From contig OZ224045.1 in the NCBI GenBank assembly GCA_963665325.3, positions 2,080,001 to 2,144,000 on the forward strand: 64,000 nucleotides of DNA. Reading direction: 5' to 3'. Position numbers and translations under genes: made by a program. This document shows, one piece after another, positions 1 through 46,691 of this stretch. The stretch is from Alphaproteobacteria bacterium. GTDB taxonomy: Bacteria; Pseudomonadota; Alphaproteobacteria; Bin95. Each line of letters starts with the position of its first letter. The stretch's first letter is position 1. The notes under the pieces are model-generated. The model ran no database searches. It saw nothing but the letters and a program-made list of their open reading frames with translations, and was not told the origin of the DNA.

Positions 1-335
1 ACGTCGTTCCGAAGATTCGCCGCCAGACCGTGCGGCTTGCGCGGGTAGCTCGCGCTGTGAAGCGCGCCGCCGCAGCGCGGGCAACCCGCCGCCCGGCACG
101 CCTCCGCCTCGGCCGCGTCGACCTGCTTCAGAAAATCCCAAACCCGGGCGTTGGAGAGATTGGAGTGCCGGAACAGCTTGTGCGACATTGGGGCCGTCTC
201 AGGTTGATGTCACTGTCACCGAGACAAGCCCTCCGGCGGCCTTCTTGCAAGATCGCCGGGGGGCACCCAATCCAAAACCTCGATTAATCCGAGCCGATCA
301 GCCCCTGATCGCCGCTGAAAGCCTGCGCCCGCTCA
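1..335 (-). mobile_element. Partial second copy (terminus) of the 4-gene DDE element at 17541-21890
   Basis: Bases 1-335 match 21556-21890; identity stops abruptly after ...GCCTGCGCCCGCTCA in both copies. Confidence 0.92.
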
Positions 336-5500: not shown

Positions 5501-5658
5501 CCGAGGGCGCGGTCGGTCGGGTCGGTCCGGTCGGGATCGTCCTGGTCGTAGGGGTCGGGTTCGTCGACGTCCGGCCCCGCTCCTACCGGCCCGAATTGTT
5601 CGAATTCGTCGGGATCTTCGATTTGGAAGGGATCGGTATCAATGTTGGGATTATCCAT
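2542..5658 (-). CDS. 1038-aa protein with two DUF2493/SLOG-like (YspA-related) domains plus a C-terminal helical module
   Basis: Two copies of the SLOG-like signature (HPDLVVVTGGNKTGADRHAAEWA; YPDTVLVHGGNDKGYDKLFAEWA), each preceded by a helical unit (ERxQ(I/L)LWGxVxV-like). Confidence 0.75.
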   Translation of the reverse strand: MDNPNIDTDPFQIEDPDEFEQFGPVGAGPDVDEPDPYDQDDPDRTDPTDRALGSDVGDWMNQARIFGLGPARGEPDTRAVYDPDDAHTAVEEVMNIIATRLAPDGSPLAEDRDQILWGFVYVLNAQSERLHKRIEGMAHTIRELIHSQDGSEVRDNELTQKTDEARNLYDRALAFDRLTNTASIAYETLTDSAWRARESNKSTFSLTEPARAPKVSLTDHLKARTWLERAEGTRIAVVSGQRPGHALVWGTLSRLLKDHPDLVVVTGGNKTGADRHAAEWATQYNVPLQAVKPDFDAPDLQAELRARNTRIVHHMDEKGRKEEGVAINGLVVFPGARTGVPGDLVAKARAARVPIAEIESAAQLHATRGRLMPGYTLDHNEFRPELDAGDTDPARSERRTGRAATAAGAADPEHPDRIETPRETLAFAINLLAERVTADGYQLNDEREQLLWGVVNVFKKQLGRLNGEARDTARDTDLAQETRDALSRNYDMRRDVFNQLFLQAGKVYQREARQPWNPDGYARLDHTHTLATLEAENLLKQVEQHRHEAIYRHGQYVVAAGGALAPEQEEPHRPVVDRYLDSVLAKYPDTVLVHGGNDKGYDKLFAEWAERNDVPQIAAQPEWGPHTQGKAPIMRNEKIFEKLSIQGLVAFGARGAILEDMIQRAGRSTWHVDPAAEMANLPTPVLQPDPDGTWEKIKADHTTIFQAAGNRAHLLPYQEGFDEFRGLVTTAIATGNHPKQHAPRLHKLRDDLDTEAERRDTVQTLQGRIEGLTDRLDGLKEWVAAEPGRPIELAPGFIAWLRDRDATVAQWNNAARNPELKDHLPRLGEDGMKAEIERLSNPDLPSLFHPALETGNRHMERVNNLYEHALAFVDRDPNLVAYSPHFDELRQTVRQVAGELVSQPDQVKDLQKLDGRLQASSQRQAEAGAAARDLSEACTQVLGFQQWAAKTERPVHEAPNFKEWRDSADAIVSRCETMRNDPKLAPHLERAGASAESTEVAVALLRDERFQLPIVPQLPAALQQARQESMEEGRSMSA

Positions 5659-10300: not shown

Positions 10301-11839
10301 CTCGTTGGAGTTTGCCGGAACGACGGCGCTGTCGTCATCGTCCTCGTAGTCGCTGACGCGGTGGATGGTCTCCCAGCCTTCGCCGATCCTGTAGCGGGCA
10401 GGGAGATGACGGGAATGGGCGGCGCCGGCGAGGACGACGGATTCCAGCTGGGCGTCGGAGAGCAGGGCGTCGGCAAGGATCCGGGTGGGTAGTTCGGGGC
10501 GGTAGTCCGGGCAGGGGTGGCGCACTGCTGCCATGGCGGCGGACTGGACCAGCGGTGTGGGGTGCTCGGCGGCGCCGGTTATGCGGAAGGCGGACGGGCG
10601 CCAGGGATGATAGGCCCCGGCGCCGGCGGAAGGAGCCGGGTCGGAGTCGTTGGCGGCGGCGGTCTCGATTGAGAGCGGTGCGGTGGGGCCCCACTCGTGT
10701 GGCATTGGGGTGAGGTGGGTGCGGCTGCCCGAGGGGGGTGTGATGGGCCGGCCGAAAAGATCGGCGGCAGGTCCCAGGGACTGGAGCGGCAGTGTGGCGG
10801 GCGGCTGCTGGCGGGGTGGAAGGTTGCGGCCGAGGGCGGCGAGGAGGTCGGCAGCGGATGAGGCGCGGTCGGTGGGGTCGAGCCGGGAAGAGGGTTTGTC
10901 GGAACGCTCGATGACCGTGAGACGGGTGTCGACGGTGGTTCCCCGGCGCGCATAGAGGCAGCGGTCGATGAGGGACGTGAAGAGGATGCGCGGGGGCGGG
11001 GTCTGGCCGGCGAAAGCGGCGTTCCAGGCGTCGGATCCGGGAATGCAGTTCGGGGAGGTGATCGCGGAGAGGCGTCCGCCCGGGGCGAGCATGGCGTAGG
11101 CGGAGCGGATATGGCGGAGGTCGGCGCGGCGGCTGGTTCTGCCGACTTCGACGGTTGCGGAGAAGGGCGGGTTCATGGCGATGGCCGTCGGATGGAGGCC
11201 TGGCATGAAGTCGGCGAGAGTCTCGGCGTCGTGGGATGTGATGGAGGCGCCCGGGAAGAGGCTGCCGAGGAGGGCGTGCCGGGTTTCGGCGATCTCGTTG
11301 AGGTGGAGGACGGGCCTGGCGTTTTCGGCGAGGAGCTGGCAGGAGGCTGCGAGGATGCCGGTGCCGGCGGAGGGTTCCAGGACGATGTCGCTGTGCTGGA
11401 CGTCGAGGGCAGTGGCTGCAACATAGGCGAGCGGCAGCGGGGTGGAGAACTGCTGCAGCTGGACCTGGTGCTCGGAGCGTTTCGTGTGGGAGGGCTCGAG
11501 GGCGGAGATGCGTTCGAGCATGGCGAGGACGCGGGCAGGACCTTCTTTGGCGGCGTGATTGACCAGGGCGGGTCCGAAGTGCTGCAGGAAGAGAACGGTC
11601 GCTGCTTCGGCGGCCTCGTAGGCCTCTTTCCAGAGCCAGCTGCCGGAATAGTGTCCGAAGACCTGTTTCATGGTCTTGCGGAGAGCGGGGGCGTCGAGCG
11701 GCCGGCCGGCCGAGAGGATGGGCAACAGGGTCTGGGCGGCGGCGAAGATGGCGGCCGCGCGGTTGCGGGTCTGGCCGGCGCCGGAGCGTGGGAGGGGGAG
11801 GATGGGTGCGCCGGAGATGGCGGCGGGGAGTTCATGCAT
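7385..11839 (-). CDS. Strawberry-notch family methyltransferase/helicase fusion
   Basis: N6-MTase motifs VLEPSAGTG and MNPPFS; SNO helicase motifs LGDGTGVGKGR, FDEAH, YVSATGA, AIQGLGRTHRTHQ. Confidence 0.92.
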   Translation of the reverse strand: MHELPAAISGAPILPLPRSGAGQTRNRAAAIFAAAQTLLPILSAGRPLDAPALRKTMKQVFGHYSGSWLWKEAYEAAEAATVLFLQHFGPALVNHAAKEGPARVLAMLERISALEPSHTKRSEHQVQLQQFSTPLPLAYVAATALDVQHSDIVLEPSAGTGILAASCQLLAENARPVLHLNEIAETRHALLGSLFPGASITSHDAETLADFMPGLHPTAIAMNPPFSATVEVGRTSRRADLRHIRSAYAMLAPGGRLSAITSPNCIPGSDAWNAAFAGQTPPPRILFTSLIDRCLYARRGTTVDTRLTVIERSDKPSSRLDPTDRASSAADLLAALGRNLPPRQQPPATLPLQSLGPAADLFGRPITPPSGSRTHLTPMPHEWGPTAPLSIETAAANDSDPAPSAGAGAYHPWRPSAFRITGAAEHPTPLVQSAAMAAVRHPCPDYRPELPTRILADALLSDAQLESVVLAGAAHSRHLPARYRIGEGWETIHRVSDYEDDDDSAVVPANSNEALSLPVHLRRGWMLGDGTGVGKGREAAAVILDNWIKGRRKALWLSQSDKLVEDARRDWTSVGGAAHQIVPISKFRQGTRIALPEGILFATYATLRSPAREGKPSRLDQIVEWLAGSLQEHHCHEFDGVIVFDEAHAMANAAGTRTDHGDTKGSLQGRAGLRLQNALPDARILYVSATGATTIPGLAYATRLGLWSTDDSPFNRRTDFVTAMEAGGVAAMEIVARDLKALGLYQARALSYQGVEVDILEHPLTPSQRRIYDSYAEAFKVIHSNIDAALKATGIVKDDDTLNRRAKAAALSAFEGAKQRFFGHLLTSMKCPTLIRSIREDLEAGHSAVVQLVSTGEALMDRRIAEIPASEWDDLSIDLTPRETVIEFLAHSFPVQLQQEFTDDKGNLYSRPVFDQDGHAVLCQEAIARRDALIGKLAALPPVASALDQIVQHFGHDAVAEITGRSRRVLRINDANGERLTLRSRPASANLAETSAFMQGDKRILVFSMAGGTGRSYHADLGCPNTERRIHYLLEPGWRADQAIQGLGRTHRTHQASAPLFRPVTTDVKGERRFIATIARRLDSLGAITRGQRNSQASMGTDSQTLFNESDNLESPYAKAALRLLYAAIHRGIIKEWSVKRFQEATGLKIVHEGSLKEDLPPMPQFLNRLLALPIDEQNQLFTELETRIDENIDRAREAGTYEVGVETVRADSLTITARETLFEHPRSSAVTELVEIARRNRLVPLPADEAIDTASRYGDADGKPRLVINTRSGRAAFILPAPSRLFDDGGVQRRVRLVRPASHETIPYADLQASNWTLSNEAPWRAHWQRELAGLPSHTDSRFWITSGLLLPIWNRLPDDNMRVRRLTTDDGEQLIGRVLDADQVRKVRKAFNLEGSTELTGEEAYDAILNRGTALPLSNGWRLTRRSISGDNRVELEGPDDTDTEALRQLGCTIELINWRARIFPTAPHVLDRIFARWPLAA

Positions 11840-12608: not shown

Positions 12609-14117
12609 TCAGGCGGCGAGAGAGTGGAGATGCGGCCGGACGTTGGCTGCGACGAGAGCTTCGGCCACGTCGGGGCAGACGGAGTTTCCGCACATCCGGA
12701 TCTGGGCTTCCTTGGTGAGAGGCTTGCCGTTCAGCTCGAAGGCGATGCGGTATGTGTCCGGGAACCCCTGGGCGTTGTAGAGCTCGCGGGCGGCGAGCAT
12801 GCGCATGCCGATATCGGTGAGCTGGTAGTCGATGGCATCGACGGTGACGAGGCCGAAGCGGGCTTTTGTTGTTGCTATAGGACAGGGGTGCCGGAGTTCC
12901 GATCCGGTGTTGGTGCCGTAGTATTTGGCGAGGAAGGCGGCTACGAGCGCTTTGTGCTGGCCCTGGGCGAGGATGGTGTTGACGGGCTTTCGAAGGTCTC
13001 CGGACCCGCCATTGGTGTTGCTGTGGTGGAAGTTGGTAAGGCAGGCGGAGACGAGAGTGGTCTTGCCGCCTCCACCGGGCATGACCGTGGGCATGGGATT
13101 GTTCAGGGCCTGTCCGGTGCTGGCGCCGAACTCGCGGGTGAGGAGAGACGTGACGAGAGCCTGGTTGGAGCCCCGGGAGACGATGGTGCTGACGGGCTCG
13201 TTGCAGGAGTGGCCGGTCATTCCCGTGTTGTGCTGGGCCATGTGGGCCGCAACGATGGCGAGCTCTCCGCGCTTCGCGGTGGTGATGGTCCGCAGGGGCT
13301 CGGTAATGGCGTGTGTGCGGTGGTCGCCGGCATGGGTGACGGGGATGATGAAGGGCTGGGCGGCGTCCAGAACGTAGCGTTTGACGCCTCGAGCGATGCG
13401 GGCGAGGGTTTTGTTGGCGAGCGGGCGGCGGACGCCGATTTTGCGGGCCTGCTTGCGTGACAGGAAGATGGAGTGGACGGGGATGGTCCAGTCCATGCAG
13501 TCGGCGGCGACGCGGAAGGGTCGGCGCCCGGGGCCGTGAGTGGGTTCGGGCCAGGCGATCGGAAGGCCGTCCCGGCGGGCGACCAGGAAGAAGCGGGTTC
13601 TGAAGGTGGGCGATCCGTAGTCGCATCCGCGCAGCTTGCGCCACTCGAAGCGGTATCCTGCGTCGGAGAGTGCCGCGAGCCATGCGCGGAAGGTCTCGCC
13701 TTCGCGCGACTTGTCGGGGCGGCCGTTCGCAAGGAGCGGTCCCCACCCCATGAACTCCTGGACGTTTTCCAGCATGATGACGCCGGGACGGGCAAGGCGC
13801 GCCCAGTGGATGACGACCCAGGCGAGGTCGCGGCTGCGCTGCTGGTCCGGGCGGATGGGAGCGGCGCCCTTGGCAACGCTGAAATGCGTGCAGTCGGGAC
13901 TGAACCACGCCAGAGAGATGGGACCGCGTCGGGAGATCTCTGCGGGGTCGACCGACCATACGTCCTGGAGGTGGTGGATCGTGGCAGGGTGGTTGAGGCG
14001 GTGCATGGCGACTGCTTCGGGATCGTGGTTGACGGCAATGTCGACCGGGCGGCCGAGGGCCTTTTCGATTCCGAGCGATGCACCTCCCCCGCCGGCGAAG
14101 TTGTCGACGGTGAGCAT
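12609..14117 (-). CDS. DNA (cytosine-5) methyltransferase, orphan
   Basis: FAGGGG, SPDCTHFS and ENV motifs, C-terminal GNSV; about five PxxTI-like repeats in the variable region. Confidence 0.92.
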   Translation of the reverse strand: MLTVDNFAGGGGASLGIEKALGRPVDIAVNHDPEAVAMHRLNHPATIHHLQDVWSVDPAEISRRGPISLAWFSPDCTHFSVAKGAAPIRPDQQRSRDLAWVVIHWARLARPGVIMLENVQEFMGWGPLLANGRPDKSREGETFRAWLAALSDAGYRFEWRKLRGCDYGSPTFRTRFFLVARRDGLPIAWPEPTHGPGRRPFRVAADCMDWTIPVHSIFLSRKQARKIGVRRPLANKTLARIARGVKRYVLDAAQPFIIPVTHAGDHRTHAITEPLRTITTAKRGELAIVAAHMAQHNTGMTGHSCNEPVSTIVSRGSNQALVTSLLTREFGASTGQALNNPMPTVMPGGGGKTTLVSACLTNFHHSNTNGGSGDLRKPVNTILAQGQHKALVAAFLAKYYGTNTGSELRHPCPIATTKARFGLVTVDAIDYQLTDIGMRMLAARELYNAQGFPDTYRIAFELNGKPLTKEAQIRMCGNSVCPDVAEALVAANVRPHLHSLAA

Positions 14118-14134: not shown

Positions 14135-14890
14135 TCAGATCAGGCCGGCTTCGGCGAAGCTGAGATGGCCGGAGTTGGTGATGATGATGTGGTCGAGGAG
14201 CCTGATGCAGAGGCAGGCGGCGCCGGTCTTTATCTCTTTGGTGAGCGCGAGGTCGTGGGGGGACGGTTCTGCCACCTGGCTGGGGTGGTTATGCACGAGC
14301 ACGATGGCGGTGGCGTTGAGTTCCAGGGTCCGCATGACGATGTCGCGGGGATGGGCGGGGACGTTGTTGACGGTGCCGGTGCGGTGCAGCTCGAAGGCGA
14401 TGGGCCGGTTGCGGATGTCGAGGTAGAGGATGTGCAGTTCCTCGTGCGGTTTGTGACCGATGAGGGACCGGCAGTGCTCGATCACGGACTTGTAGTTGTT
14501 GAGCATCGGGTTGACGTTGGTCGGGAGGCGCGCTGTGGAGTGCCGGATGGCGAGGGATTCGGCGACCTTGATTGCGACGATGGCGTCATTGTCGATGCCG
14601 GGGATGGAGCGCAGGCGGCCGGGAGTGGCGGCAAGGATGCGGGAGGGGTCGCGGAAGACGTCCAGCAGGGTGTCGGCAAGCGCTTCGGCCTCGTCGTTCG
14701 GCCGGGAGCCCGAAAGGAGAAGGGTGACGAGCTCGCGCTCGTCTAGGATGTCCGGCTGTTCGCCTATGAGCCTGAGGGCGGGAGAAGCAAGCGCAGAGGC
14801 CGGCGCTGTTTCGGCGTGGGTGCAGGGGCTGGAAGCGAAGAGGGGTAGGCCGGGCGTGCGCGGGGCCGCGCAGTCGTCGAGCGGGGGCAT
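14135..14890 (-). CDS. radC: RadC/JAB-domain protein
   Basis: HNHPS..PSPHD..LLDHIII; start chosen at the internal ATG. Confidence 0.85.
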   Translation of the reverse strand: MPPLDDCAAPRTPGLPLFASSPCTHAETAPASALASPALRLIGEQPDILDERELVTLLLSGSRPNDEAEALADTLLDVFRDPSRILAATPGRLRSIPGIDNDAIVAIKVAESLAIRHSTARLPTNVNPMLNNYKSVIEHCRSLIGHKPHEELHILYLDIRNRPIAFELHRTGTVNNVPAHPRDIVMRTLELNATAIVLVHNHPSQVAEPSPHDLALTKEIKTGAACLCIRLLDHIIITNSGHLSFAEAGLI

Positions 14891-15083
14891 TGGCAGGGTC
14901 CCATAGCGTCGGGGGTCGATGACGGACCGGAGCGGTCCGATCTGGCCGAAAGCGGCTTTCCTCGGCTTTGGGCTGCGGTGCTCAGAGGCTGACCTGGATG
15001 GGGGACAGGAACTTGCGGTGAGCGAGGGGTGTTGGGACCGGTCAGTTGTCTTCTGGCTGGTGGACCTGGATTGTGTCTGCGAG

Positions 15084-15593
15084 TCAGCCCTGGATGTGGC
15101 GTGTGACGAGCAGGCCGGTGAGGAAGGCATCTGCCTGAGTAGTTCGCCGGATGTCCTTCCAATGTTGAAGCGCTCTGATTGCTAGCTGGTGGTAGTACAG
15201 GGCATCGGATCGCTGGAAGAGGCGATAGGTGTTGTAGTCGGCTTGGTGCCGGGCTTCCTGAAGGTCTTGGAATGTTTGTGCGATTGCAACGAGCCGGGGG
15301 TCTATGGCAACGCCGGTGAAGGCTGGGGCCAGGTTGCTGGGAGGGTTGCCTGCCGCGAATGACTTGCAGACGGCGCGCATGTCGGAGTGGCGGAAGGCAC
15401 GGGAGACGCATTGACGGATGGAGGTACGATGCGGGCCCGGCATCATCCGTCGTGTCGCGTCGTCGACCAAGCAATGGAACAAAGCGTAGTACGACGCCGA
15501 TATGGCGCGGCGCAGGCTGGCTTGGGAGGGGCGTCTGGGTTCTTTTGTCGCCAGGTGATGCGCCTGCTTCAGCAGGTCGGCATGCAGGCTCAT
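15084..15593 (-). CDS. HEPN-like protein (putative toxin)
   Basis: RRAISASYYALFH and LQEARHQADY. Confidence 0.75.
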   Translation of the reverse strand: MSLHADLLKQAHHLATKEPRRPSQASLRRAISASYYALFHCLVDDATRRMMPGPHRTSIRQCVSRAFRHSDMRAVCKSFAAGNPPSNLAPAFTGVAIDPRLVAIAQTFQDLQEARHQADYNTYRLFQRSDALYYHQLAIRALQHWKDIRRTTQADAFLTGLLVTRHIQG

Positions 15594-15942: not shown

Positions 15943-16248
15943 CTACGGTTGCTGTAGCGGTTGAGCATCGGAGGGAATGTCGAGCTGCATCTGGCCGCGC
16001 TCGGTGAGGATATGCGGAACCTCGATCGGCGTGGGCGATGTGCCCGGGTCGGAGTTGGCACCGTCGCAGGCGGCAACAATGAAGATCGGGCCGGCGTAGT
16101 CGAGGCTTTTCCATCCGTCGTCGAAATTGGCCTCCTCGATCGCTCTGTTGAGGGCCGTGTCGAGGTCCTCGTCGTCGGAGACCTCGATCTGGACGGTATT
16201 CGACATGTAGGTGGCGAAGCAGCACTGGACAGAGACGGTGCGCGACAT
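15943..16248 (-). CDS. Hypothetical protein (101 aa)
   Basis: ATG overlaps the upstream stop (TGATG); acidic composition. Confidence 0.6.
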   Translation of the reverse strand: MSRTVSVQCCFATYMSNTVQIEVSDDEDLDTALNRAIEEANFDDGWKSLDYAGPIFIVAACDGANSDPGTSPTPIEVPHILTERGQMQLDIPSDAQPLQQP

Positions 16249-17540
16249 CAGGCGGCTTCCTTCGGTTCGGGTCCGGCAATGGAGACGGAGATCCTGTTGC
16301 GGTCGATGGTAATGGTGACCGGGCGCTCGCGTGGTGCGATCCAATGGATATGGCGGCATACCATCTCCTTGATCGCGTCGATGGTGGCTTCGTCCTCGGA
16401 GCAGAGCAGCCGGGTCGCGATCCGGTTCGCTTCCAGCATGAAGTCGTTGCGCTGGGTTTCCCAGGCATTGGCTTCGGCATCGTCGGAGTAGCAGAAGAAG
16501 GCGCTGTAGATGAGGTCTGCCAGCTCGAAGGGTTGGAGGTTGCTCGAGGCGGAGACGAGCGGCGCTATCTCCTCGACGTAGCAGTCCTGGTCGCAGGCGA
16601 ACGCCATGTCGGCGTCGGTGACGATGGCCGTCGTGGAACCGTCCGGATGTTGGATCTCCAGATGCATCGTCATGGCGTCGGGGCGAATGCCGGCCGGGGT
16701 GTCGTCTGTCGGGTAGTCTTCGAGGGCACGGCTGTGTTCGCCCGCGATGACTTCGATGCGGACTCCGGTGATCCGCGGCAGGCAATCGTACCAGTCGTAG
16801 CCGGCGAGATCGCTCTCGGGGCGGTAGAGACGCTCGGCGATGCTGGCGCGCTGCGCTGCGCGCCAGAAGGCCTGCGAGAGCGGCGGCTCGTCCTCGAAGT
16901 CGACGACGAGGGCGTCGACCGGGAGGATTTCGGGGGCGGGGTCCTCCTGGTTGTTGCACCAGTCGGCGTTGCGAGGACGCCACGGGTGGAGGTGCGGGGG
17001 CGCCGGGCGGATGTGGATGCCGGCATCGCGGGCGGCCGTCCAGGTCTTGTAGGTGGGCCGGGGATCGGGGTGTGCGGCCATTGCCCTGTAGATGGCGTGG
17101 GTGGAGGCCTCGTGCATGCGAGGGACGAAGGGGGTTGCGACGAGCTGCTTGCGGGCCGGGAGGACGAGCTCCAGCTCGGGACAGTCCCGGACGTCGGCGC
17201 GGATGGACCAGGTCGGGCCGCCTACGGAGGAGATTTCGGGGAAGCCGGTCTCGATCGTGTGGCCGTGGAAGTTGATCGTCGGGTCGTGGAAATGCTTGCG
17301 TCCGTTGACCATGACCCCGAAGTCGATGCCGTGCCATGCCTCACGGTGGACGGCGTCCTGGAGGAAGTCGCGGCGCGGGAGGGTTTCTCCGTCTTCAGGC
17401 GAGTCCGGAAGACCGGAAAGGGTTACAGGGAGCGGGTGGTAGAGGGCGGCCGCTTCGGTGGCTCTCCGGATGTCGAGGACGTGGGAAACGATGAGGAACG
17501 ATATGGTGAGTGTGCTCTCGGTATCTGATGGCGGGATGGT
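16248..17540 (-). pseudogene. 3' part of a GHKL/HATPase-domain gene split by the DDE element
   Basis: Removing 17541-21890 joins ..PHGTSI to TIPPSD.. in frame. Confidence 0.8.
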
Positions 17541-17752
17541 CACGTTGTTCGATGGTTTTCAGGCGTCGGGCCGGGCGTGACGGCGGGGGTGTCGGACGGC
17601 CGTCGGCGCGTCAAGCCGCTTCGCGGCTCCTGCGCTGCGCTCCGGCCCTTCGGGTGACCCGCCGCCGTCCCTCCGACGGAGTGCATCCATGGCCGTAAGC
17701 AAGCTTCCGGCCACGGGCCGGCCGCTTTACGCAGTGTGACAATGGGAGCGGT

Positions 17753-17813
17753 GTTACCCGTTACCGTTACCCTCTCTCCCTAGGGGTTCGAGGCGGTAAC
17801 GGTTTTCGGTAAC
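17753..17813. repeat. GTTACC x3 facing GGTAAC x2 (iteron-like)
   Basis: Seen directly at the 3' end of the AAA gene. Confidence 0.6.
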
Positions 17814-18778
17814 GTGTCCCTGCGGTCGTTGCCGTTGAGGGCGGCGAGGCGGTATCCGCCTTCGGATGCGCGCTCGACGCGTCCTTCGCGGACGAGCCTG
17901 TGCAGCGCCTCGGCGACGGTTGCGGGCCGGGTTGCCGCGCGCTCGCGGATCCGGCGCTGGGAGAGCGGCGCGTCGGCGTCGGCGAGGGCCTGCAGGATGC
18001 GCCGTTCGGGGGTATCCGGCTCCGGCGCCTGGTCTTCCGGCGTCTCGCGCAACCGCAGGGCGGGGCGCTCGTCGTCGTCGGCGAGTTCGATCTCGAGGTC
18101 TTCGAGGCCAGGGGCGTCGCGATGCTCGACGGTCATGAGGATCTGGCGGTCTCGCCGGCGCAGGTACAGATTCGAATCGCCCCAGGCGTGAAGTTCGCTG
18201 CTGCCGCGCAGCGCCTGCCCGGGCCGGGAGCCGCCGCTCTTTCGTGCGTGATGGACGAGGAGGACGGCGGTTTCGAAGCGGCGCTGTATGTCGCGCAGGA
18301 AGCCCAGCATGGGGGCGACCTCGGCGACGGTATTTTCGTCGACGCCGTGCAGGCGCACGAGGGGGTCGAGGACGACGAGGCGGGGTGAGACGCGCTCCAC
18401 CGTCTCGACCAGGCGCTGGCGATCGGCGCGATGGTCGAGACGCAGCGTGGGCACGTCGATGACGGCGATGTCGAGGGTCTCGAACGCGGTGCCTGCCGCC
18501 TTTGCGATGCCCTGGAGGCGTGCGCGCACGATATGGCCGGCGTCCTCGGCGGCGAACAGCAGCACGGGGCCGCTTGCGGCGGGACGGAAGTGGCGCAGGC
18601 AGGGGACGCCGGCGGCGACCGCGACGGCGATGTCGAGTGCGAGGAAGGATTTGCCGCACTTGGGCTCGCCGCCGACGATGCCGACGCCCTGCTCGGACCA
18701 CAACGCCTCGACCATCCAGCGGCGCGCCTGGGGGCGCTCTTCGAGCTCCGCCGGCGCCCGTGTCGGGAAGCCCTTCAC
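17780..18778 (-). CDS. AAA_25/RepA-like (RecA-fold) ATPase with C-terminal HTH
   Basis: GGEPKCGKS, LFAAED, VVLDPLVRLH, LLVHHARK, LRGSSELHAWGD; GTG start overlaps the upstream stop. Confidence 0.85.
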   Translation of the reverse strand: MKGFPTRAPAELEERPQARRWMVEALWSEQGVGIVGGEPKCGKSFLALDIAVAVAAGVPCLRHFRPAASGPVLLFAAEDAGHIVRARLQGIAKAAGTAFETLDIAVIDVPTLRLDHRADRQRLVETVERVSPRLVVLDPLVRLHGVDENTVAEVAPMLGFLRDIQRRFETAVLLVHHARKSGGSRPGQALRGSSELHAWGDSNLYLRRRDRQILMTVEHRDAPGLEDLEIELADDDERPALRLRETPEDQAPEPDTPERRILQALADADAPLSQRRIRERAATRPATVAEALHRLVREGRVERASEGGYRLAALNGNDRRDTLPKTVTASNP

Positions 18779-19608
18779 CGCCGCGCCCTCCTCGGCTTGG
18801 CGGGTTCGCCCAGGGTCTCGATGAAGAGCTTCTCGTCGAGGACCTCGCGCTCCTTCTCGGCGGCGGCGGCGAGCAGGGCGTCGGCCATGACGGTGAGCGC
18901 CCGCGGGTTGCCGTCGGCATGGGCGACCAGGGTGTCCTTGAGGCCCGCGGTCATGAGGCCGGGATTGCCGGCCTGCTCGATCAGATGGTCGAGCAGGGCC
19001 GCGAGGTCGCCGGCCTCGGCCTTGGTCATGACCAGGCGCTGGCGGATGCGCGAGGCGATGGGCTGCAGATCGGGCTGGCGGAGCTTGTCGAGCAGGCGCG
19101 TGTCGCCGGCGAGGACGACCGAGAGGATGGCGCGCGAGTCGAAGTCGGTCGAAGCCAGCAGGCGGATCTCGGAGAACACCGAGGGCAGCAGCTCCTGGGC
19201 CTCGTCGACGAGCACGACGGGGCGCATGCGGGTATCGTCGACATGGGCGAGCCAGCGCTCGCGCAGGCTTTTGAAGCTGGCCCAGCGGTTGTTGTACATC
19301 AGGTCGACGCCGAACATCTCGCCGATCTCGCGGTAGAAGTCGGACAGCCGGGAGGAGGGATGGGTGATGGCGGCGATGCTGAGCCCCTCGCAGCGGCCGA
19401 GACGGTCGGCGAGCAGGCGCAACGCCACACTCTTTCCGGCGCCGGGCTCGCCGGCGATCAAGGCGAAGCCGCCCTGGCGCACCAGGTGGCGCTCGATCCT
19501 GAGGCAGAAGCTGTCGACGGCAGGCGTCGCCATGAGACTGTCGACCGGCAGGTCGGTGGCGAAGGGGTTCCACTTGAGCCCGTAGAAGGTGAGCAGTTCC
19601 CGGTTCAT
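18775..19608 (-). CDS. ExeA-like AAA ATPase (transposition helper)
   Basis: YGLKWNPF, GEPGAGKS, VLVDEAQ, GNPR. Confidence 0.9.
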   Translation of the reverse strand: MNRELLTFYGLKWNPFATDLPVDSLMATPAVDSFCLRIERHLVRQGGFALIAGEPGAGKSVALRLLADRLGRCEGLSIAAITHPSSRLSDFYREIGEMFGVDLMYNNRWASFKSLRERWLAHVDDTRMRPVVLVDEAQELLPSVFSEIRLLASTDFDSRAILSVVLAGDTRLLDKLRQPDLQPIASRIRQRLVMTKAEAGDLAALLDHLIEQAGNPGLMTAGLKDTLVAHADGNPRALTVMADALLAAAAEKEREVLDEKLFIETLGEPAKPRRARR

Positions 19609-21080
19609 GGCGCATCTCCCCGATCTTCGTCCTCGCCCGGACCGGGCGTCTTGTCATGGGGCAGCCAGGCCGGCGGCAGGCCGGTTGCGGCCTGGGCGTC
19701 GAGCATGCCCTTGAGCAGCGGCGGAAGTTCCCCCGTCCCCGCGCCGCCATTGCCATCGTTGCCGCCGGGGCCGGCGGGACGGCGCACGCCATCGGCGTTG
19801 CCGCGCTTGTCGAGGGGGTACAGCGTGCACAGGCGCTCGCCGCCTCGACCGTCGATCAGATCGACGCTGGCGAGGTTCCAGCGCGCGTAACGGATCCAGG
19901 CCTCGCGCAGGTGGCGCCACGGCTGTGGCACCTGGTAGCGGATGCCCTCGACCGAGACGGTGCCGTCCGAGCGCCTGAGCGTGCGCTTCCTGGTGATGCG
20001 GAAGGCCGCCTTGAGCTCGGCCGAGCCGGGGCAGGATCTCGACGCGTCGACGCTCCCGGCCAGGCGTTGATGCGGCGTCATGCCGAGCTCGCGGTGCTTG
20101 CGGCGGTGATAGTCCTGCTCCAGCCAGGCGATGGTGGCGTCGTTGAGCATCTTCAAGGTAAGCGCGTCGACGCCTTCGAGCTGAGCCATCAGGCGCGATT
20201 CGACCGTGCCCCAGAACGACTCGATCTTGCCGTTCTGATGGGGGCTGTAAGCGAGCGTCGTGACCCCCGCGATGCCGAGCCGGTGCAACCCCTCCTCGAC
20301 CTCGCCCGCGGTCATCGCCGCGCCGTTGTCGGTCAGCAGGGACCTCGGCAGACCGCGCTTCATGAAGGCCTGGCAAAGGCCGTGGACGAACACCTCGGCG
20401 GTCTCGGCGAGGTACCACTGAAGGTGGCAGCCGAGGCGCGAGTGGTCGTCGAGGAAGCCGAGCAGGATCGGCGTCTTCCACTCGCCCGAGGCGGTCAGCA
20501 CGCGACGCTTGGCGCTGTGCATGTCGGCGTGCCACAGGGCGTGAGAGCGCGAGACCTCGTAGCTCAATACCTCGCGGGCTTCGACCGCCGGCCTGGCCTC
20601 GCTCTCATGCCACTTGCGCCGGCGCTTGCGTACCAGCCCGCGAGCCCGCATCGCCCGGGTCAGCGTCGCGTAGGACGGTATCGGGCCGAGCTCGGGATCG
20701 GCCTCGACCCGCGCGGCCAGATTCTCGTGATGAAGCTGCGCCGACCACGACGGATGCGCCCGGTACTGCTCGTGCAGCGCCTCGATCAGCGTCGGCGACA
20801 TCGCGCGCGGGCGCCCGGCATCGGCGCGCGGGCGCCGCTTGAGCGCCCCCACCGGATCGTTGTCCGCCGCCCGCGCCTGGTAGTACCAGCGCTCGATCGT
20901 GGACACCGCGAAGCGCACCCGGCCCTTGCCGGACGGGTGATCCCACTCGCGTTCGGCAAGCCGCTCAAGCTCGGCGTGCAGCCGCCCCGCCGGCGGCGGC
21001 GAGGCCAGAAGCGGCCCGACCACCGCGAAGCGCAACCGCGCCCACCGGTCGCGACGCTCGCTCCCGTCGTTGCTGTTCAT
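19605..21080 (-). CDS. DDE (rve) integrase/transposase with Mu-like C-terminus
   Basis: LWHAD, FLDDHSR, LLTDNGAA, NGKIESFW, YHRRKHRELGMTP. Confidence 0.92.
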   Translation of the reverse strand: MNSNDGSERRDRWARLRFAVVGPLLASPPPAGRLHAELERLAEREWDHPSGKGRVRFAVSTIERWYYQARAADNDPVGALKRRPRADAGRPRAMSPTLIEALHEQYRAHPSWSAQLHHENLAARVEADPELGPIPSYATLTRAMRARGLVRKRRRKWHESEARPAVEAREVLSYEVSRSHALWHADMHSAKRRVLTASGEWKTPILLGFLDDHSRLGCHLQWYLAETAEVFVHGLCQAFMKRGLPRSLLTDNGAAMTAGEVEEGLHRLGIAGVTTLAYSPHQNGKIESFWGTVESRLMAQLEGVDALTLKMLNDATIAWLEQDYHRRKHRELGMTPHQRLAGSVDASRSCPGSAELKAAFRITRKRTLRRSDGTVSVEGIRYQVPQPWRHLREAWIRYARWNLASVDLIDGRGGERLCTLYPLDKRGNADGVRRPAGPGGNDGNGGAGTGELPPLLKGMLDAQAATGLPPAWLPHDKTPGPGEDEDRGDAP

Positions 21081-21128
21081 TCCGGCATCCCCCTCGCTGC
21101 TTCGTGGAGGTGCCGATGATGCGGTGCC

Positions 21129-21743
21129 CTATCCGTGCATCATAGAAACGCTTTCTGCGGGCGAAGCCGGACCTGCGCCGAGCGCGCAAAAGCCGGTCCA
21201 CGGCATCAGCCAGACCAGGCTCCGCAGCAGCCGCGAGCGGAAGCCACGGCCCCGCATGATGCGCAGCAGCCGGCGCAGCGGCGCCTCTTCGGGCGGCGCC
21301 GCCAGCTCGCCCCGTCTCGCCTGCCACTCCCGGGTCAGCGGGAAGGCTTCCAGCCACCAGCGCCGCCAGCGCTTCAGCGTCGAGGCCGGAACCCCGCACC
21401 GCCGCGCGATCGTCTGCAACCGCGCGCCGCCGGCCACAGCCAGCGCACTCACCACAAGGAACAGCGCCCCGACGTAAAAGCGCCTGCCGAAGAAACGCAC
21501 CGACGGCGGCTTCACGCGGCGTCGGCACACCGAACAGCACAGGCTGAAGCGCCGAACGTCGTTCCGAAGATTCGCCGCCAGACCGTGCGGCTTGCGCGGG
21601 TAGCTCGCGCTGTGAAGCGCGCCGCCGCAGCGCGGGCAACCCGCCGCCCGGCACGCCTCCGCCTCGGCCGCGTCGACCTGCTTCAGAAAATCCCAAACCC
21701 GGGCGTTGGAGAGATTGGAGTGCCGGAACAGCTTGTGCGACAT
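21129..21743 (-). CDS. Zn-finger + HTH accessory protein of the element (DUF6431-like)
   Basis: CPRC..H, CSVC, PPSVRF, STLKRWRRWW. Confidence 0.75.
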   Translation of the reverse strand: MSHKLFRHSNLSNARVWDFLKQVDAAEAEACRAAGCPRCGGALHSASYPRKPHGLAANLRNDVRRFSLCCSVCRRRVKPPSVRFFGRRFYVGALFLVVSALAVAGGARLQTIARRCGVPASTLKRWRRWWLEAFPLTREWQARRGELAAPPEEAPLRRLLRIMRGRGFRSRLLRSLVWLMPWTGFCALGAGPASPAESVSMMHG

Positions 21744-21890
21744 TGGGGCCGTCTCAGGTTGATGTCACTGTCACCGAGACAAGCCCTCCGGCGGCCTTCT
21801 TGCAAGATCGCCGGGGGGCACCCAATCCAAAACCTCGATTAATCCGAGCCGATCAGCCCCTGATCGCCGCTGAAAGCCTGCGCCCGCTCA

Positions 21891-22376
21891 TATGGACGTT
21901 CCATGCGGCCAGGGAGCCTGCTCGCAAGAAGAGACGGCAGCCGGGAGCTTGCCCGTGAAATGGTCGGGGTCGAGTTTGACGCGCCAGCCGCTATAGGAGC
22001 GCCCATTGAGGGACCGGGGCCGCGAGGTGACGGTGCAGCCGATCCGCGCCAGCGAAAGGAAGCCCATGCCGGCGGCGTCCTCGCGTGCGACGAGCTCGCG
22101 GCTCCAGCCGTTCCGTCCGTAGGAGAGCAGGACGGAAGGGTCGGCTATGCCTGAGCCGTCGTCGCAGATCGTGACGAGCTGCGAATTCGGCGTCGAGGGA
22201 TGACGGGGCTCGATATGGATGCGGACCATGGTGGCGTCGGCGCGGCGCGCATTCTGCAAGGTCTCCGAGAGGACGTCTTCGATCTTGGCCGAGAACATGC
22301 GGGGCACGCGTTCCAGGGTGGAATCGTCGATGCGGGCCCGGATGGTGCGGGGAAGGACGGAAGGCGAAGCGGACAT
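21891..22376 (-). pseudogene. 5' part of the GHKL/HATPase gene
   Basis: ETLQNARRADA, DDGSGI, AGMGFLSL, GT motifs; cut at the element junction. Confidence 0.85.
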
Positions 22377-25705: not shown

Positions 25706-27216
25706 TCAGGCGTTGGCAAGTGTTCGGGTTGCGACGCGAATCAGCGCGATTGCATTCGGTTTGATACGAAGACGGGCCTTTCCTCGTGTTGGGCCGGCGG
25801 ACATGTCGATATGGTCGAGCAGGTCGGCAAGGCGAATGGTTGCCTCGATACGCGTTTCGGGGTCGTCGCAGTCGATGGACGCTTGAAGGTTGCTGGCGTA
25901 TTCGGCCAGGATCGGTTTGAGGTTGATGGTCTCGGGCTGGAACTGGGAACCGATGGCGTACCGGTTCAGTTCGGCTTCGATTGAGTGGATTTCGTCCGAA
26001 AGCTCCATCATCCTGTCTCGCATTTGTGGCGTATCGGTTCCGGTTTCGATAGCTTGCACGAGGCGGTTCATGCGCAGGTTGCAGTCCGAGAGTTCGGCGC
26101 GCAGATGGGCGCGAGTTTCGACGATGCGGTTATGGGCGTCCTGGAGGATATGGTTCCAGTCCTTGTGACGACGGACCCAGGACGTGAGTTGACGGGCGGA
26201 AAGACGGTCGATGTCGCGCAGGACGAAGGTCCGGGCCGTGCATTTTCCTCGCGCCTTGCTTTCATTGCACGCCCACCGATGGCGGCCGATGGTACGAACC
26301 GGTCCCTTGCAGCGTGAACAGCGCAGCAGGGTGGTCAGTGGCATGGCCCCGCGTGCAAGACTTGGAGCTCCGGCCGTGTGTCTGCGGGGGAGGGATCTGG
26401 AATGGATGCGCTCCTGGACTGCATGCCAGGTCTCGTCGTCGACGATTTGGAGGGCTGGAACCTGGGTGATTCGCCAGGTCTCCTTGGGATTGGGTCGGTA
26501 TACGCGCTTGGCGGTGGCGGGGTCGGTAGCTGTTTCGATTACGCCGTAGTGCAGGGAGCCCTCGTAGATCGGGTTTGTCAGGATTCCGAAGAACGAGTGG
26601 GCGCCGGTTAGCGAGCTGTGGTTCCAGGCTCTCGCAGTGTGAGGCGGCGGTATGCGTTCTTCGTTGAGAGTCCGAGCGATTGCCCGGGCGGAAGATCCGT
26701 CGAGATACAGTCGGTATATGCGGCGGACGATTAGTGACGTATCCGGATCGATTTCACGCAAGCCGCGGATGATCTTGGAACCTTCGATGCGGTTTGCAAT
26801 GCGATAGCCGTAGGCGGGACGACCGATCTGTCGTCCCTGGTTGATGAGGGCTATCTGGCCTCGGCGGGTCTTTGATGCGAGGTCCGTCAGGAACATAGCG
26901 TTCATCGTTGACTTGAAGGCGGCGATAACAGGGCCGACGGGGCCCTCATTGATCGTGAGGAGCGTAACATGGCTGAATTCGAGTTGCTTTTGTATATGGG
27001 CGGTATCTTCGATGTCGCGGCTGATACGGTCGAGCGCTTCGGCGCAGACCGCTGTGAAGGCGTTGCGGCGGCAGTCGCGAAGCAGGGCCTGGATGCCAGG
27101 ACGCTTTAACGCGGTGGATCCGGAAACGGCAGCGTCGGAGTATCTGGCGACGACGGTGCCTCCGAGATCGTGGATGTAGCGCTGGCACTCTGCGAGCTGG
27201 TCGTCGATGGATTTAG
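25706..27216 (-). pseudogene. Large serine recombinase, 3' part (interrupted by IS1634)
   Basis: SIDDQ..DAAVSG..RPG..ALDRISRD, AYGYR, recombinase domain, Zn ribbon CSRC..C..C, coiled coil. Confidence 0.9.
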
Positions 27217-29286
27217 CCCAAGTTTAACGTTTTGGTGGCCGATTTTGTCGAGGTTGGCCGGCGCGGTGTCATCAAGCCATTGATATTGCTGGATTGAGGT
27301 TTCCGGGGGCGCAATGTAGTGCCATAATATTTTCACTTGGGGATTTCGAGACCTTGCGCCCGCTCCTATGCTGTGCGCCATGTTCATTCGCCGCACCAGG
27401 ACCGGAACCGGCGAGCGCGGCGAGGTCTATTATTCCCATCGCCTTGTTCGCTCGGAGCGCGACGGCGGGAAGATCCGCCAGCGCACCCTGCTCAACCTGG
27501 GGAGCGACTTCCCTGTCGAGCGGCGGCACTGGGCGGTGCTGTGCAGCCGGATCCAGCAGCAGCTCGACCGCCAGGCCGAGCTGGTTTCGCTGTCCTGTCC
27601 GGAGGAGGTCGAGCGGCACGCCCAGCGCATCGCCGCGCAATTGCTCAACAGCGCGCCGTCCGGCGGGACCGGGCGCCCTGACCTGCAGACGGTGGATGTC
27701 GGCTCCCTGGAGCTGATCCGCCCGCGTTCGGTCGGCGTCGAGCATGTCGGGCTGTGGGCCATGGAGCGGCTCGGCCTGGAGGCTTTGCTGGAGCGCCTGG
27801 GCTTCAACGGCACGCAGCGCGCGCTCGCCATGGCCACCGTGATCGCGCGCATGGCGGCGCCGGGCTCGGAGCGCGCCTCCTGGCGCTGGCTGTGCGAGCG
27901 TTCGGCGCTCGGCGAGTTGCTGGGGGTGGACTTCGAGCGCATGAGCATGATGCGCCTGTACCGCGCCTCCGACGCCCTGATGGCGCAGCGCGCGGCGATC
28001 GAGGCGCATCTGTTCGATCGGGCGACGGATCTGTTCGGCCTGCGCCACACGGTGACGCTGTACGACCTGACCAACACCTTCTTCGAGGGCGCGGCGGCGG
28101 CCCAGGCCAAGGCCGAACGCGGCCATTCCAAGGAGAAGCGCTCGGATTGCCCGCTCTTGACCCTGGGGCTGGTGCTCGACGGCTCGGGCTTCGTGCGCCG
28201 CTCCGAGGTGTTCTCGGGCGCGGTCAACGAAGACAGGACCCTGGCGTCGATGCTCGGCGCCCTGGGCGCGCCGGCGGACGCGCTGGTGGTGATGGATGCG
28301 GGGATCGCCACCGAGGCCAACATCGCCTGGCTGCGCGCGAACGGCTACCGCTATCTCGCGGTCAGCCGGGAACGCACCCGCCGCTTCGATCCCGAGCTGG
28401 CGCTGGCCATCGAGACCCGGTCGCGCCAGACGGTCCATGTCCACAAGGCGGTCGACGCCGAAGCTGGAGAGGCGCGGCTCTACTGCTACTCCGAGGCGCG
28501 GGCGAAGAAGGAACAGGGCATCGCAAACCGCTTCGCCGCGCGCTTCGAGGGCGAGATGCAGAAGCTCCACGACGGCCTCAAGCGGCCGCGCACCCGCAAG
28601 CGGCTCGACCATGTCTGGCAGCGGATCGGCCGGATCAGGGAGAAGAGCCGCGGCGCCGCGGCCCACTACGACATCGACGTCATCGCCGACGAAAGCGGCG
28701 AGAAGGCCCGGGCCGTCACATGGGAGCGCCGCCCGCTCGCCGGCACCATGGCCACCCATCCCGGCGTTTACTGCCTGCGCACCAACGTCGAGGACTGGGA
28801 CGAGGAGGCGCTGTGGCGGACCTATACCTCGCTCACCGATGTGGAGGCGGTGTTCCGATCGCTCAAGTCGGAACTCGGCCTGCGCCCCATCTTCCACCAG
28901 ACCCAGAGGCGCTCCGACGGCCACCTGTTCATCACCGTGATCGCCTACCAGATGGTGCAGACCATCCGCCGGCGCCTCGCCGAGCACGGCGAACACGCCA
29001 GCTGGGCCAGCCTGCGAGCCATCCTCGAAGGCCAGCAGCGGGTCACCGCGACCTTCAGGCGCAAGGACGGACGCACCTTGCATGTCCGCAAGGCCACACG
29101 GGCCGAGCCCGAACAGCAAGAAATCTATCGCGCGCTCGGCATCGACCCCGCCCCTGGAGGCATCAGGAAAATGATCGTCTGATCCCGAACCGGGCGAAAT
29201 AACCGAAATGTAGTGCCAGACGCGAAATTATTGCTCCGTAAGGCATTGATAATCAATGATCTTCAAAATGCTCTGTTAAACTTGGG
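27217..29286 (+). mobile_element. IS1634-family insertion sequence
   Basis: 12-bp inverted repeats CCCAAGTTTAAC; TTAG duplicated at 27213-27216 and 29287-29290. Confidence 0.92.
27380..29182 (+). CDS. IS1634-family transposase
   Basis: RLVRSER..RQRTLLNLG, YDLTNTFFEG, GHSKEKRSD, VMDAGI, VEAVFRSLKSELGLRPIFH. Confidence 0.93.
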   Translation: MFIRRTRTGTGERGEVYYSHRLVRSERDGGKIRQRTLLNLGSDFPVERRHWAVLCSRIQQQLDRQAELVSLSCPEEVERHAQRIAAQLLNSAPSGGTGRPDLQTVDVGSLELIRPRSVGVEHVGLWAMERLGLEALLERLGFNGTQRALAMATVIARMAAPGSERASWRWLCERSALGELLGVDFERMSMMRLYRASDALMAQRAAIEAHLFDRATDLFGLRHTVTLYDLTNTFFEGAAAAQAKAERGHSKEKRSDCPLLTLGLVLDGSGFVRRSEVFSGAVNEDRTLASMLGALGAPADALVVMDAGIATEANIAWLRANGYRYLAVSRERTRRFDPELALAIETRSRQTVHVHKAVDAEAGEARLYCYSEARAKKEQGIANRFAARFEGEMQKLHDGLKRPRTRKRLDHVWQRIGRIREKSRGAAAHYDIDVIADESGEKARAVTWERRPLAGTMATHPGVYCLRTNVEDWDEEALWRTYTSLTDVEAVFRSLKSELGLRPIFHQTQRRSDGHLFITVIAYQMVQTIRRRLAEHGEHASWASLRAILEGQQRVTATFRRKDGRTLHVRKATRAEPEQQEIYRALGIDPAPGGIRKMIV

Positions 29287-40340: not shown

Positions 40341-40507
40341 GTGAGCTGTCCTTTCGGGCGGTCCGGTCGTGGGCTTGAGGCCGTTCTGTGTGTTGGAATG
40401 CTGTGGGCGCTGGCGTAGCCGGTGCTCTGGAAGCGCTTCCGGTCGATGGTGGCGGCCCGGGCCGGCGCCGAATTGAACGGCGCTGCCGCAGGCTGTAGGA
40501 TCGGCCC

Positions 40508-40708
40508 ATGGACAGGTACAGAATCGGTGGCGAGCCGCCCGCCATACCGGGATTCCCGGAGGACTGGCGCGACCGGATCAAGGCCGACCTCGCGGCCCAG
40601 CTTGAGGCCGGGGGCACGCTCTACAGCCTCCGCCCGGACGGTGCCTATGTCGCGCGCACCAGGGAGGGAGACCGGGTGCTCGGTTGGCCCGACTGGGAGT
40701 GCGACTGA
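40508..40708 (+). CDS. Small protein upstream of the zeta-like ATPase (possible partner)
   Basis: 66-aa ORF in operon position. Confidence 0.5.
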   Translation: MDRYRIGGEPPAIPGFPEDWRDRIKADLAAQLEAGGTLYSLRPDGAYVARTREGDRVLGWPDWECD

Positions 40709-40728
40709 CCCGGCAGGCGCCGTTCGCC

Positions 40729-41301: not shown

Positions 41302-41375
41302 GACCGGCGGACAATGCCAACCTGCGGTTGGATCGGCCGTTGGTGGAAACGGCCTTTGTGGCTATGGTGGCTATC

Positions 41376-42039: not shown

Positions 42040-42059
42040 CGCCAATCGGGACAGGCCTG

Positions 42060-46598: not shown

Positions 46599-46656
46599 GA
46601 TTTTCGACGCTCGGCGGCGTCCATGCCTCGATCCCCACTTTTTTCGCTTTCCCGGC

Positions 46657-46685: not shown

Positions 46686-46691
46686 CCGCGC

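Follow-up and report, generated by a model that had tools for sequence, protein, structure and literature searches.

The element described here lies at positions 17507 to 21890 of a 64,000-nucleotide stretch of contig OZ224045.1 from an Alphaproteobacteria bacterium (assembly GCA_963665325.3); this whole stretch is referred to below as the window. With a probability that we put at nearly nine in ten, the element is one of 24 genomic copies of a conventional DDE/AAA+ transposon of the Tn6049 type, 4384 bp in length. The conventional reading follows from its TG...CA ends, its inverted repeat, target duplications of 4-6 bp, and an exact empty site. The unusual feature is an extra gene, orf4, for a predicted replication-type helicase, accompanied by a conserved folded DNA or RNA element of 160 nucleotides; the rest is built as in a Tn6049-type transposon. 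A preliminary description of the same DNA had proposed a multicopy four-gene DDE element without inverted repeats or a clean target duplication, and its claims are taken up where the corresponding results are given.

The boundaries were fixed by comparing window positions 17400-22000 with the whole genome by BLAST: every other genomic copy matches the window from 17507 to 21890. The left end had previously been placed at 17541, which is 34 bp inside the true boundary. With the corrected boundaries, the element starts with TGAGTGTGC and ends with GCCCGCTCA. When the two ends are compared in inverted orientation from the termini inwards, there are 7 matches in the outermost 9 bases and 14 in the outermost 24; of 20000 shuffles, just 17 attained 14 matches. 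With gaps permitted, local alignment of the ends did not rise above shuffled sequences (966/2000), and only the terminus-anchored comparison exceeds chance. Inverted repeats had been reported missing, a claim that does not survive this comparison, the more so as relatives of the element carry up to 24 perfect bases. In addition, two direct repeats, probably bound by the transposase, lie close to the helicase-side terminus, and this two-repeat arrangement is conserved in aligned relatives of both transposon backbones described below, including the end of locus L038.

The sequence TATGG stands on both sides of the element, and 20 of the 24 copies have perfect duplications, ten of 5 bp, eight of 4 bp, and two of 6 bp; two further copies have a 5-bp duplication with one mismatch. 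The earlier statement that there is no clean target duplication is thus corrected. Excision of the element with one copy of the duplication (4384 + 5 = 4389 bp) makes the host gene read ...PHGTSISFLIVSH..., as in the intact orthologue of a congener (G012), which is 90% identical; in that orthologue the N-terminal part ends at residue 210 and the C-terminal part starts at residue 211. An independent empty site is provided by contigs of two public sequencing runs (X2 and X4), which join position 17502 to 21892 and skip exactly 4389 bp. The transposon is precisely inserted into a host gene, so that at least one host gene is simply interrupted here. It had also been claimed that removal of 4350 bp restores the host frame. 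This is a coincidence: 4350, like 4389, is divisible by 3, and by chance the element's final 13 codons (TIPPSDTESTLT...) can be read without a stop in the host frame; the true excision is that of 4389 bp, and the orthologue lacks those codons. The interrupted gene, approx. 580 amino acids long when whole and starting with an HATPase_c_3 domain, is a member of a large family of paralogues within the genus: single genomes contain as many as a dozen matches at 40-48% identity, several of which adjoin one another.

The multicopy nature of the element, noticed earlier, was confirmed. The 24 copies are distributed over all five contigs, with 14 on C1, 2 on C2, 4 on C3, 3 on C4, and 1 on C5. As many as 22 of them are identical, counting one that is interrupted by a 2070-bp insertion sequence, and this identity is evidence of recent activity, as had been proposed. 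Of the two non-identical copies, one has lost a single base from a run of Gs within the transposase gene and the other a single base upstream of orf1. The matching terminus noted earlier at the very start of the window proved to be the orf1-side end of another copy (G000 C1:2075952-2080335). Two copies, C2:25283-29666 and C4:930514-934897, carry each other's flanks: GGTCG is found to the left of the C4 copy and to the right of the C2 copy, and CCGT to the left of the C2 copy and to the right of the C4 copy. Such an exchange indicates a reciprocal crossover through the transposon between two ordinary insertions on two replicons or contigs. Across the 24 copies, target sites share no consensus beyond richness in G+C. 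Seven copies lie within 119 kb (C1:1,982,775-2,101,890, approx. 2% of the genome), a region that includes window positions 1-21890.

The four genes of the preliminary description (Zn-finger/helix-turn-helix, rve, ATPase, and RepA-like) were borne out by open reading frame (ORF) calls and Pfam. All four are co-oriented on the minus strand between 17780 and 21743 (Table 1). The stop and start codons of orf2 and orf3 overlap as ATGA and those of orf3 and orf4 as GTGA, with GAGGAGG upstream of the orf4 start; owing to these overlaps, the genes are regarded as one translationally coupled operon. The small cysteine-rich orf1 product has its neighbours in a protein atlas among DUF6431/HTH_23 clusters, which serves as a lead only. 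The catalytic triad of orf2 (D186, D251, and E287) is invariant in an alignment of homologues. For orf3, a match to the PHROG family 'DNA transposition protein' was obtained (E 1e-23), and a profile of 19 homologues found MuB of phage Mu (8xvb, E 4.4e-13) and TnsC of ShCAST (7m99, E 1.7e-4).

Table 1. Coordinates of the transposon, its parts, and adjoining features in the window
Feature	Position	Strand	Remarks
Whole transposon	17507..21890	- (genes)	4384 bp, TG...CA termini; boundaries common to 24 genomic copies
Terminal inverted repeat, helicase-side end (TGAGTGTGC...)	17507..17530	.	14/24 anchored matches to reverse complement of 21867-21890
Terminal inverted repeat, orf1-side end (...GCGCCCGCTCA)	21867..21890	.	
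Target-site duplication, copy 1 (TATGG)	17502..17506	.	identical 5 bases at 21891-21895; site single in G012 orthologue
Target-site duplication, copy 2 (TATGG)	21891..21895	.	
Two subterminal direct repeats (CATCAGATACCG and CATCGAACAACG, minus strand)	17519..17554	-	probable transposase binding sites
Conserved structured element (RNA or single-stranded DNA), 160 nt	17585..17743	-	downstream of orf4; covariation
Inverted arrays of GTTACC/GGTAAC hexamers	17753..17813	.	flank orf4 stop codon; read from sequence
orf4, 332 amino acids, RecA-fold AAA_25 ATPase (RepA/DnaB-like) with C-terminal winged helix	17780..18778	-	GTG start at 18778 overlaps orf3 stop
orf3, 277 amino acids, AAA+ ATPase of MuB/TnsC target-activator type	18775..19608	-	Pfam AAA_22, E 5e-20
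orf2, 491 amino acids, DDE (rve) transposase with N-terminal helix-turn-helix	19605..21080	-	Pfam HTH_32, rve, rve_3
orf1, 204 amino acids, Cys-rich Zn-ribbon and HTH_23 accessory protein	21129..21743	-	Pfam HTH_23, E 3e-6
Host gene, C-terminal part	16248..17506	-	90% identical to residues 211-627 of G012 orthologue
Host gene, N-terminal part (HATPase_c_3 domain, Pfam)	21891..22376	-	89% identical to residues 72-210 of G012 orthologue
Second copy, orf1-side 335 bp, cut by window edge	1..335	-	G000 C1:2075952-2080335; duplication GCGT

In a comparison with 72556 plasmids, the best matches of orf2 are the Tn6049 transposases of pHS87a and of Cupriavidus plasmids, with 50.4% identity over 94% of the protein. 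Tn6049 has been described from Cupriavidus metallidurans CH34 as a 3.5-kb element present in 12 copies, often in genomic islands and always with the 'gspA' ATPase (PMC2864759); a second paper gives 12-bp imperfect inverted repeats starting with TG and a 4-bp duplication (PMC4739549). On pHS87a, Tn6049 encodes a 181-amino-acid 'transposase', a 479-amino-acid transposase named as IS481-family by the Prokaryotic Genome Annotation Pipeline, a 277-amino-acid AAA ATPase, and a 90-amino-acid protein. The order and overlaps of the first three genes are the same as here, the identities are 40% for orf1, 50.4% for the transposase, and 52% for the ATPase, and the ATPase has 277 amino acids in both elements. 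Both also have TG...CA termini and short imperfect inverted repeats (TGAG...CTCA here); the duplication is 4 bp in Tn6049 and 4-6 bp here, and 12 copies in CH34 compare with 24 in the present genome. The difference lies beyond the ATPase gene. The fourth ORF of Tn6049, with 90 amino acids, has no Pfam match and no similarity to orf4, whereas the present element departs from the pattern of about 3.5 kb with a small fourth ORF: it has 4384 bp and carries the 332-amino-acid RecA-fold ATPase/winged-helix gene and the 160-nucleotide structured element. In the literature searched, which did not include ISfinder and TnCentral, no DDE transposon, Tn6049-like or otherwise, was found described as carrying such a helicase, nor was a mechanistic study of Tn6049 found. 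The Tn6049 family is poorly characterised; in this respect the preliminary description was right that the class has been little studied, although the element itself matches a described one. Its other remark on novelty, that the element has its own RepA-like ATPase, stands as a genuine oddity for a DDE transposon.

The element shares a two-component logic of DDE transposase and AAA+ ATPase with Mu (MuA/MuB), Tn7 (TnsB/TnsC), Tn5053 (TniA/TniB), and IS21 (IstA/IstB). In particular, orf3 has the properties of an AAA+ target activator such as MuB, TnsC, or TniB, both orf2 and orf3 match Mu-type transposition families in PHROG, and the TG...CA ends with subterminal repeats are Mu-like. Nevertheless, none of these families accommodates it. 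Mu, Tn552, Tn5053, and Tn7 have a Mu-transpos_C domain and a fixed 5-bp duplication, whereas orf2 lacks this domain and the duplications vary from 4 to 6 bp; the present element also has no gene for TnsA, TniQ, or a resolvase. As for IS21, no IstB_IS21 match is listed for orf3, and the IS21 transposase model scores 45 bits on orf2 against a cutoff of 160. IS481 provides the best NCBIfam model for orf2, yet the score remains below the cutoff, and IS481 elements are single-gene elements of approx. 1-1.5 kb that lack a partner ATPase, in contrast to the four-gene operon of 4384 bp found here. Features in common with IS481 elements are a DDE/rve fold, a variable duplication length, and a presumed copy-paste transposition (PMC6794481, PMC10045372).

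These comparisons suggest how the element may move. The rve-fold transposase encoded by orf2 would bind the paired subterminal repeats and expose the 3'-OH at the terminal CA; it would then join both ends to the target DNA at points staggered by 4-6 bp, and repair of the gaps would yield the duplication. The MuB/TnsC-like ATPase (orf3) would capture target DNA and activate strand transfer, and the small Zn-ribbon/helix-turn-helix protein (orf1) may be a DNA-binding accessory or regulator. Net transposition is likely to be copy-and-paste, as supposed for IS481-type enzymes, since 22 identical copies imply it; circular or replicative intermediates are possible. Finally, orf4 and the 160-nucleotide element may serve the DNA-synthesis step, by helicase loading and priming on the copied or transferred strand.

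The assignment of orf4 to replicative helicases comes from several sequence searches. Pfam returns AAA_25 (E 5e-36) together with HTH_IclR, HTH_MarR, and HTH_GntR, and the protein matches primase/helicase families in PHROG. Its sole significant sequence match in the PDB is RepA of RSF1010 (1g8y, E 2.4e-8, residues 35-196). Walker A (GEPKCGKS) and Walker B (VVLD) are invariant. The protein thus combines a RecA-fold core, both Walker motifs, and homology to a solved helicase, the features by which superfamily 4 (DnaB/RepA-like) helicases are recognised, and is a putative member of that superfamily. Its likeness to RSF1010 RepA and to phage primase-helicases extends to a Toprim primase-like gene that follows it in three relatives; it differs from RSF1010 RepA in its C-terminal winged helix, its location in a DDE transposon, and the lack of a close relative on the 72556 plasmids. 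The hexamer arrays around the orf4 stop codon may be an operator of the winged helix or a hairpin; in relatives the arrangement is preserved, although the hexamers differ (GGGAAC or GGAACC).

Homologues of orf4 are abundant: 7823 were found at E <=1e-5, and the best 120 of the 7823, almost all metagenomic, are 72-86% identical. In a collection of species-representative genomes, 142 stretches encode an orf4 relative, and several long-read Alphaproteobacteria assemblies hold dozens of identical copies per genome. Single matches to orf4 relatives occur in Chloroflexota/Dehalococcoidia, Gemmatimonadota, and Acidobacteria bins, where short contigs may be mis-binned. Of the 16 other species of the genus, 10 encode a homologue that is 63-83% identical, and one genome (G011) has 12 copies; none was found in 24 genomes outside the genus. 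The gene is nearly absent from plasmids (4 of the 72556 records, at no more than 30.5% identity), and no family among defence-system models matches it.

To place orf4 in its genetic context, 20 representative loci (L001 included) were compared, 19 of them being related loci. orf4 is 74-82% identical in all 19, which fall into two groups. Nine share the present backbone, with an orf2 that is 73-91% identical and TGAG...CTCA ends. The other ten have a Mu-like backbone, in which the transposase is 30-34% identical (in the core only) and the ATPase 25-28% identical, the ends are TGTTGT...ACAACA, the transposase carries a Mu-transpos_C domain, and a homologue of orf1 is absent. Both backbones have conventional ends, with duplications of 4-6 bp and inverted repeats that are perfect over approx. 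9 to 24 bases; similarly, six multicopy families of relatives in metagenome-assembled genomes show TG...CA ends, inverted repeats of 9-24 bp, and duplications of 4-6 bp. As judged from these alignments, orf4 and the downstream 160-nucleotide element are a portable module that is also carried by an unrelated Mu-like backbone, and this portability argues against a backbone-specific protein contact of the module. In three loci (L038, L076, and L084), a gene with DUF3991 and Toprim_2 domains (primase-like) follows orf4 at the place where the structured element otherwise stands; in L038 it is followed by the usual subterminal repeats and terminus. Locus L076 (5719-10187) has, behind orf4, the Toprim primase-like gene, a 97-amino-acid ORF, and a gene for an 1100-amino-acid superfamily 1 (SF1) helicase that ends in a C-terminal MTES_1575/DUF559 nuclease domain.

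The structured element was recognised as a block of approx. 160 nucleotides shared by 13 of 19 aligned sequences; L077 has an internal gap and L085 has other sequence there. Its predicted fold is composed of a hairpin and a long stem that closes three mini-hairpins with C-GNA-G loops. In the 13 sequences, RNAalifold proposes 48 pairs, 7 of them with compensatory change. When a covariance model was applied and 50 metagenome instances (45 distinct) were added, 94.1% of cells were paired and 33 of the 48 pairs had changed on both sides. The covariation score of 0.330 compares with 0.02-0.03 for slid partners and was reached by none of 500 shuffles; it is to be read with the caveats that the alignment was fitted to the model and that the three tip helices, having served as the search pattern, do not vary. 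On the minus strand, G-U pairs outnumber A-C pairs 92 to 23, which points to the sense strand as the folding strand. When 17507-17790 was folded as a single sequence, neither strand did better than its shuffles (z -1.10 and 0.02), and the structure is therefore visible only by comparative analysis. No Rfam family matched at E <=1 over 17300-22100, no relevant match was obtained in nine element-bearing loci, and the core motif, searched as text in the literature, was not found. A metatranscriptome contig of a relative (X17) covers parts of orf4 and of the structured element, although DNA carry-over and strand cannot be judged from it.

In the present genome, the covariance model has no matches apart from the 24 copies and one fragment. 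In metagenomes, the 33-nucleotide core occurs in at least 120 stretches, in diverse company. Several of them (L098, L100, L139, L176, and others) are IS110-family elements with the core of approx. 60 nucleotides (the three mini-hairpins) near one end, in either orientation: downstream of the IS110-family transposase gene it is in sense orientation in L100 and opposed to the gene in L098 and L176. A group of ten such loci has approx. 150 additional conserved bases beside the core. IS110/IS1111 elements have non-coding guide RNAs, and the structured element was considered as such a bridge or seek RNA for the present transposon; this was rejected, as the targets share no sequence and the transposon contains no IS110-type recombinase. 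Genes for RecD2-like SF1 helicases (AAA_30, UvrD_C_2, and weak TraI_hel_assoc_N) lie directly upstream of the structured element on the same strand in L119 (1285-3264) and L143 (609-3200) and represent a second helicase family, unrelated to orf4, next to it. In L134 the structured element stands beside an IS91-type gene, and a short form is found beside housekeeping genes. In DNA, mini-hairpins of the d(GCGAAGC) type have an exceptional stability; they are known from complementary-strand origins of phages, and plasmids can carry three-hairpin priming signals of the G4 type.

On these grounds, a role of orf4 as a helicase-plus-priming module for the DNA-synthesis step is proposed tentatively. 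In its favour, orf4 is homologous to replicative helicases and translationally coupled to orf3, some relatives have a primase-like gene in place of the structured element, the position next to one end is fixed, and the conservation of orf4 exceeds that of the transposition genes. In a broader version, which is speculative, a portable 'mini-primosome', composed of the RepA/DnaB-like winged-helix helicase and either the Toprim primase-like gene or the 160-nucleotide element, would have been captured by at least two unrelated DDE/AAA+ backbones. It is just as doubtful, though conceivable, that such a mini-primosome provides helicase loading and priming for copy-out or for second-strand synthesis of a single-stranded or circular intermediate, with the structured element representing a new, widespread single-strand priming or loading signal of mobile DNA.

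Several observations weigh against the interpretation of the element as a Tn6049-type transposon with a replication helicase. The inverted repeat of the present lineage is weak (14/24). The best NCBIfam model for orf2, IS481 (NF033577), reaches only 123.9 bits against a cutoff of 224 (E 8e-36), and an orf2 profile matched only retroviral integrase cores in the PDB, and neither MuA nor TnsB. The AlphaFold model of orf4 is poor, with a mean pLDDT (predicted local distance difference test) of 62.3. Foldseek matches of this low-confidence model include Rad51, DnaB (2r6a and 4esv), RadA, and KaiC and thus span the whole RecA superfamily; hence, the fold search cannot separate a helicase from recombinase-like relatives, and the helicase role is a predicted one. 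Tn6049 transposes without an orf4-like gene, and since it is multicopy without one, orf4 is not essential to the transposition chemistry. In most cases the structured element occurs apart from orf4: among 36 metagenome loci whose upstream sequence extends for 1300 bp or more, orf4 is present there in just 6, and the structured element otherwise adjoins IS110-family genes, RecD2-like helicases, and housekeeping genes, so its function need not be tied to the helicase. Lastly, a circle junction (21890 joined to 17507) was not present among the 15 joints listed from the assembled contigs of four runs, which drop rare forms.

Among the alternatives, the one that survives best is that orf4 and the structured element are cargo, a hitch-hiking module that has no role in transposition and that may be a remnant of the replication module of a plasmid or integrative element, or a regulator maintained for its own sake or that of the host. 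We consider this possible, if on balance unlikely. It would agree with the movement of the module between unrelated backbones, with Tn6049 being without it, with the much greater frequency of the structured element without orf4, and with the additional cargo (SF1 helicase-nuclease) behind the module in L076. Cargo would not be expected to be translationally coupled to orf3, intact in all 24 genomic copies, and always located in the same position beside one terminus; nor would it be expected to include the gene that is the most conserved across backbones and phyla (72-86% identity in the best 120 of 7823 homologues). The lack of a defence-family match and the near-absence of orf4 from plasmids likewise speak against cargo.

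It is rather improbable that orf4 is instead a factor of target selection or immunity, whose winged helix guides the MuB-like ATPase to mobile or replicating DNA in the manner of TnsD, TnsE, or TniQ. The position of orf4 after the ATPase gene mirrors that of tniQ and tnsD, 7 of the 24 copies lie within a 119-kb region resembling a plasmid or an integrative and conjugative element (ICE), and Tn6049 is 'often associated with genomic islands' (PMC2864759). Yet Tn6049 shows this island association without orf4, the clustering may also arise from local hopping or from relaxed selection in islands, and the target sites have no consensus beyond G+C richness. RecA-fold ATPases are not known to act as target selectors. 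A new DDE class, devoid of inverted repeats and duplications and for that reason moving by an atypical pathway, is very improbable: the inverted repeat does remain short and imperfect after correction (7/9, 14/24) and the duplication does vary from 4 to 6 bp, but the idea arose from a left end misplaced by 34 bp, and the corrected element has TG...CA ends with an above-chance inverted repeat, duplications at 20 of 24 copies, an exact empty site, and relatives with up to 24 perfect bases. The argument of the preliminary description for an atypical pathway rested on the missing repeats and duplications, both of which are present at the corrected left end; it had also named conventional repeats and duplications in other copies, or a match to a described IS family, as the findings that would overturn its class, and other copies do have such repeats and duplications and the element matches a described one.

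A new transposition chemistry is thus not indicated, as the ends and duplications are normal and the element belongs with Tn6049. The present element family has spread massively in uncultured bacteria, and its most conserved gene encodes what is predicted to be a replication-type helicase, carried by no textbook DDE transposon. If the helicase, the alternative primase, and the structured element do serve replication, the family would lend itself, as a simple system, to studies of the way in which copy-and-paste transposons recruit DNA synthesis. With the structured element, a new family of signals in mobile DNA would be added. The corrected boundaries matter for the annotation of the present genome.

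Three further observations concern the surroundings of the copies. The 119-kb region and the window are plasmid- or ICE-like in their gene content: the window contains three RepC-type ORFs (39429-46781), a ParA gene (38752-39432), a serine recombinase (25706-26905), a strawberry-notch-type helicase (7385-11839), a C5 DNA methylase (12609-14117), RadC (14135-15130), and a YspA/SLOG protein (2542-5658). A remnant of a related element was found at G000 C1:446405-446548 and C1:452255-452355. What is left of it is the 3' end of an orf4 homologue (44 codons, 70% identical) and the beginning of the structured element (81-83% identical), and these two pieces, contiguous in the transposon, are separated there by approx. 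5.7 kb of inserted DNA. The 2070-bp insertion sequence, finally, also occurs in the window at 27217-29286 (G000 C1:2107217-2109286), has the ends CCCAAGTTTAAC...GTTAAACTTGGG, and is present in the genome in 12 full identical copies; its 615-amino-acid ORF (27272-29119) has no Pfam match at 1e-5. The copy at C1:2290873-2292942 sits within a transposon copy, at the CTAG that holds the orf4 stop codon, and has duplicated this CTAG.

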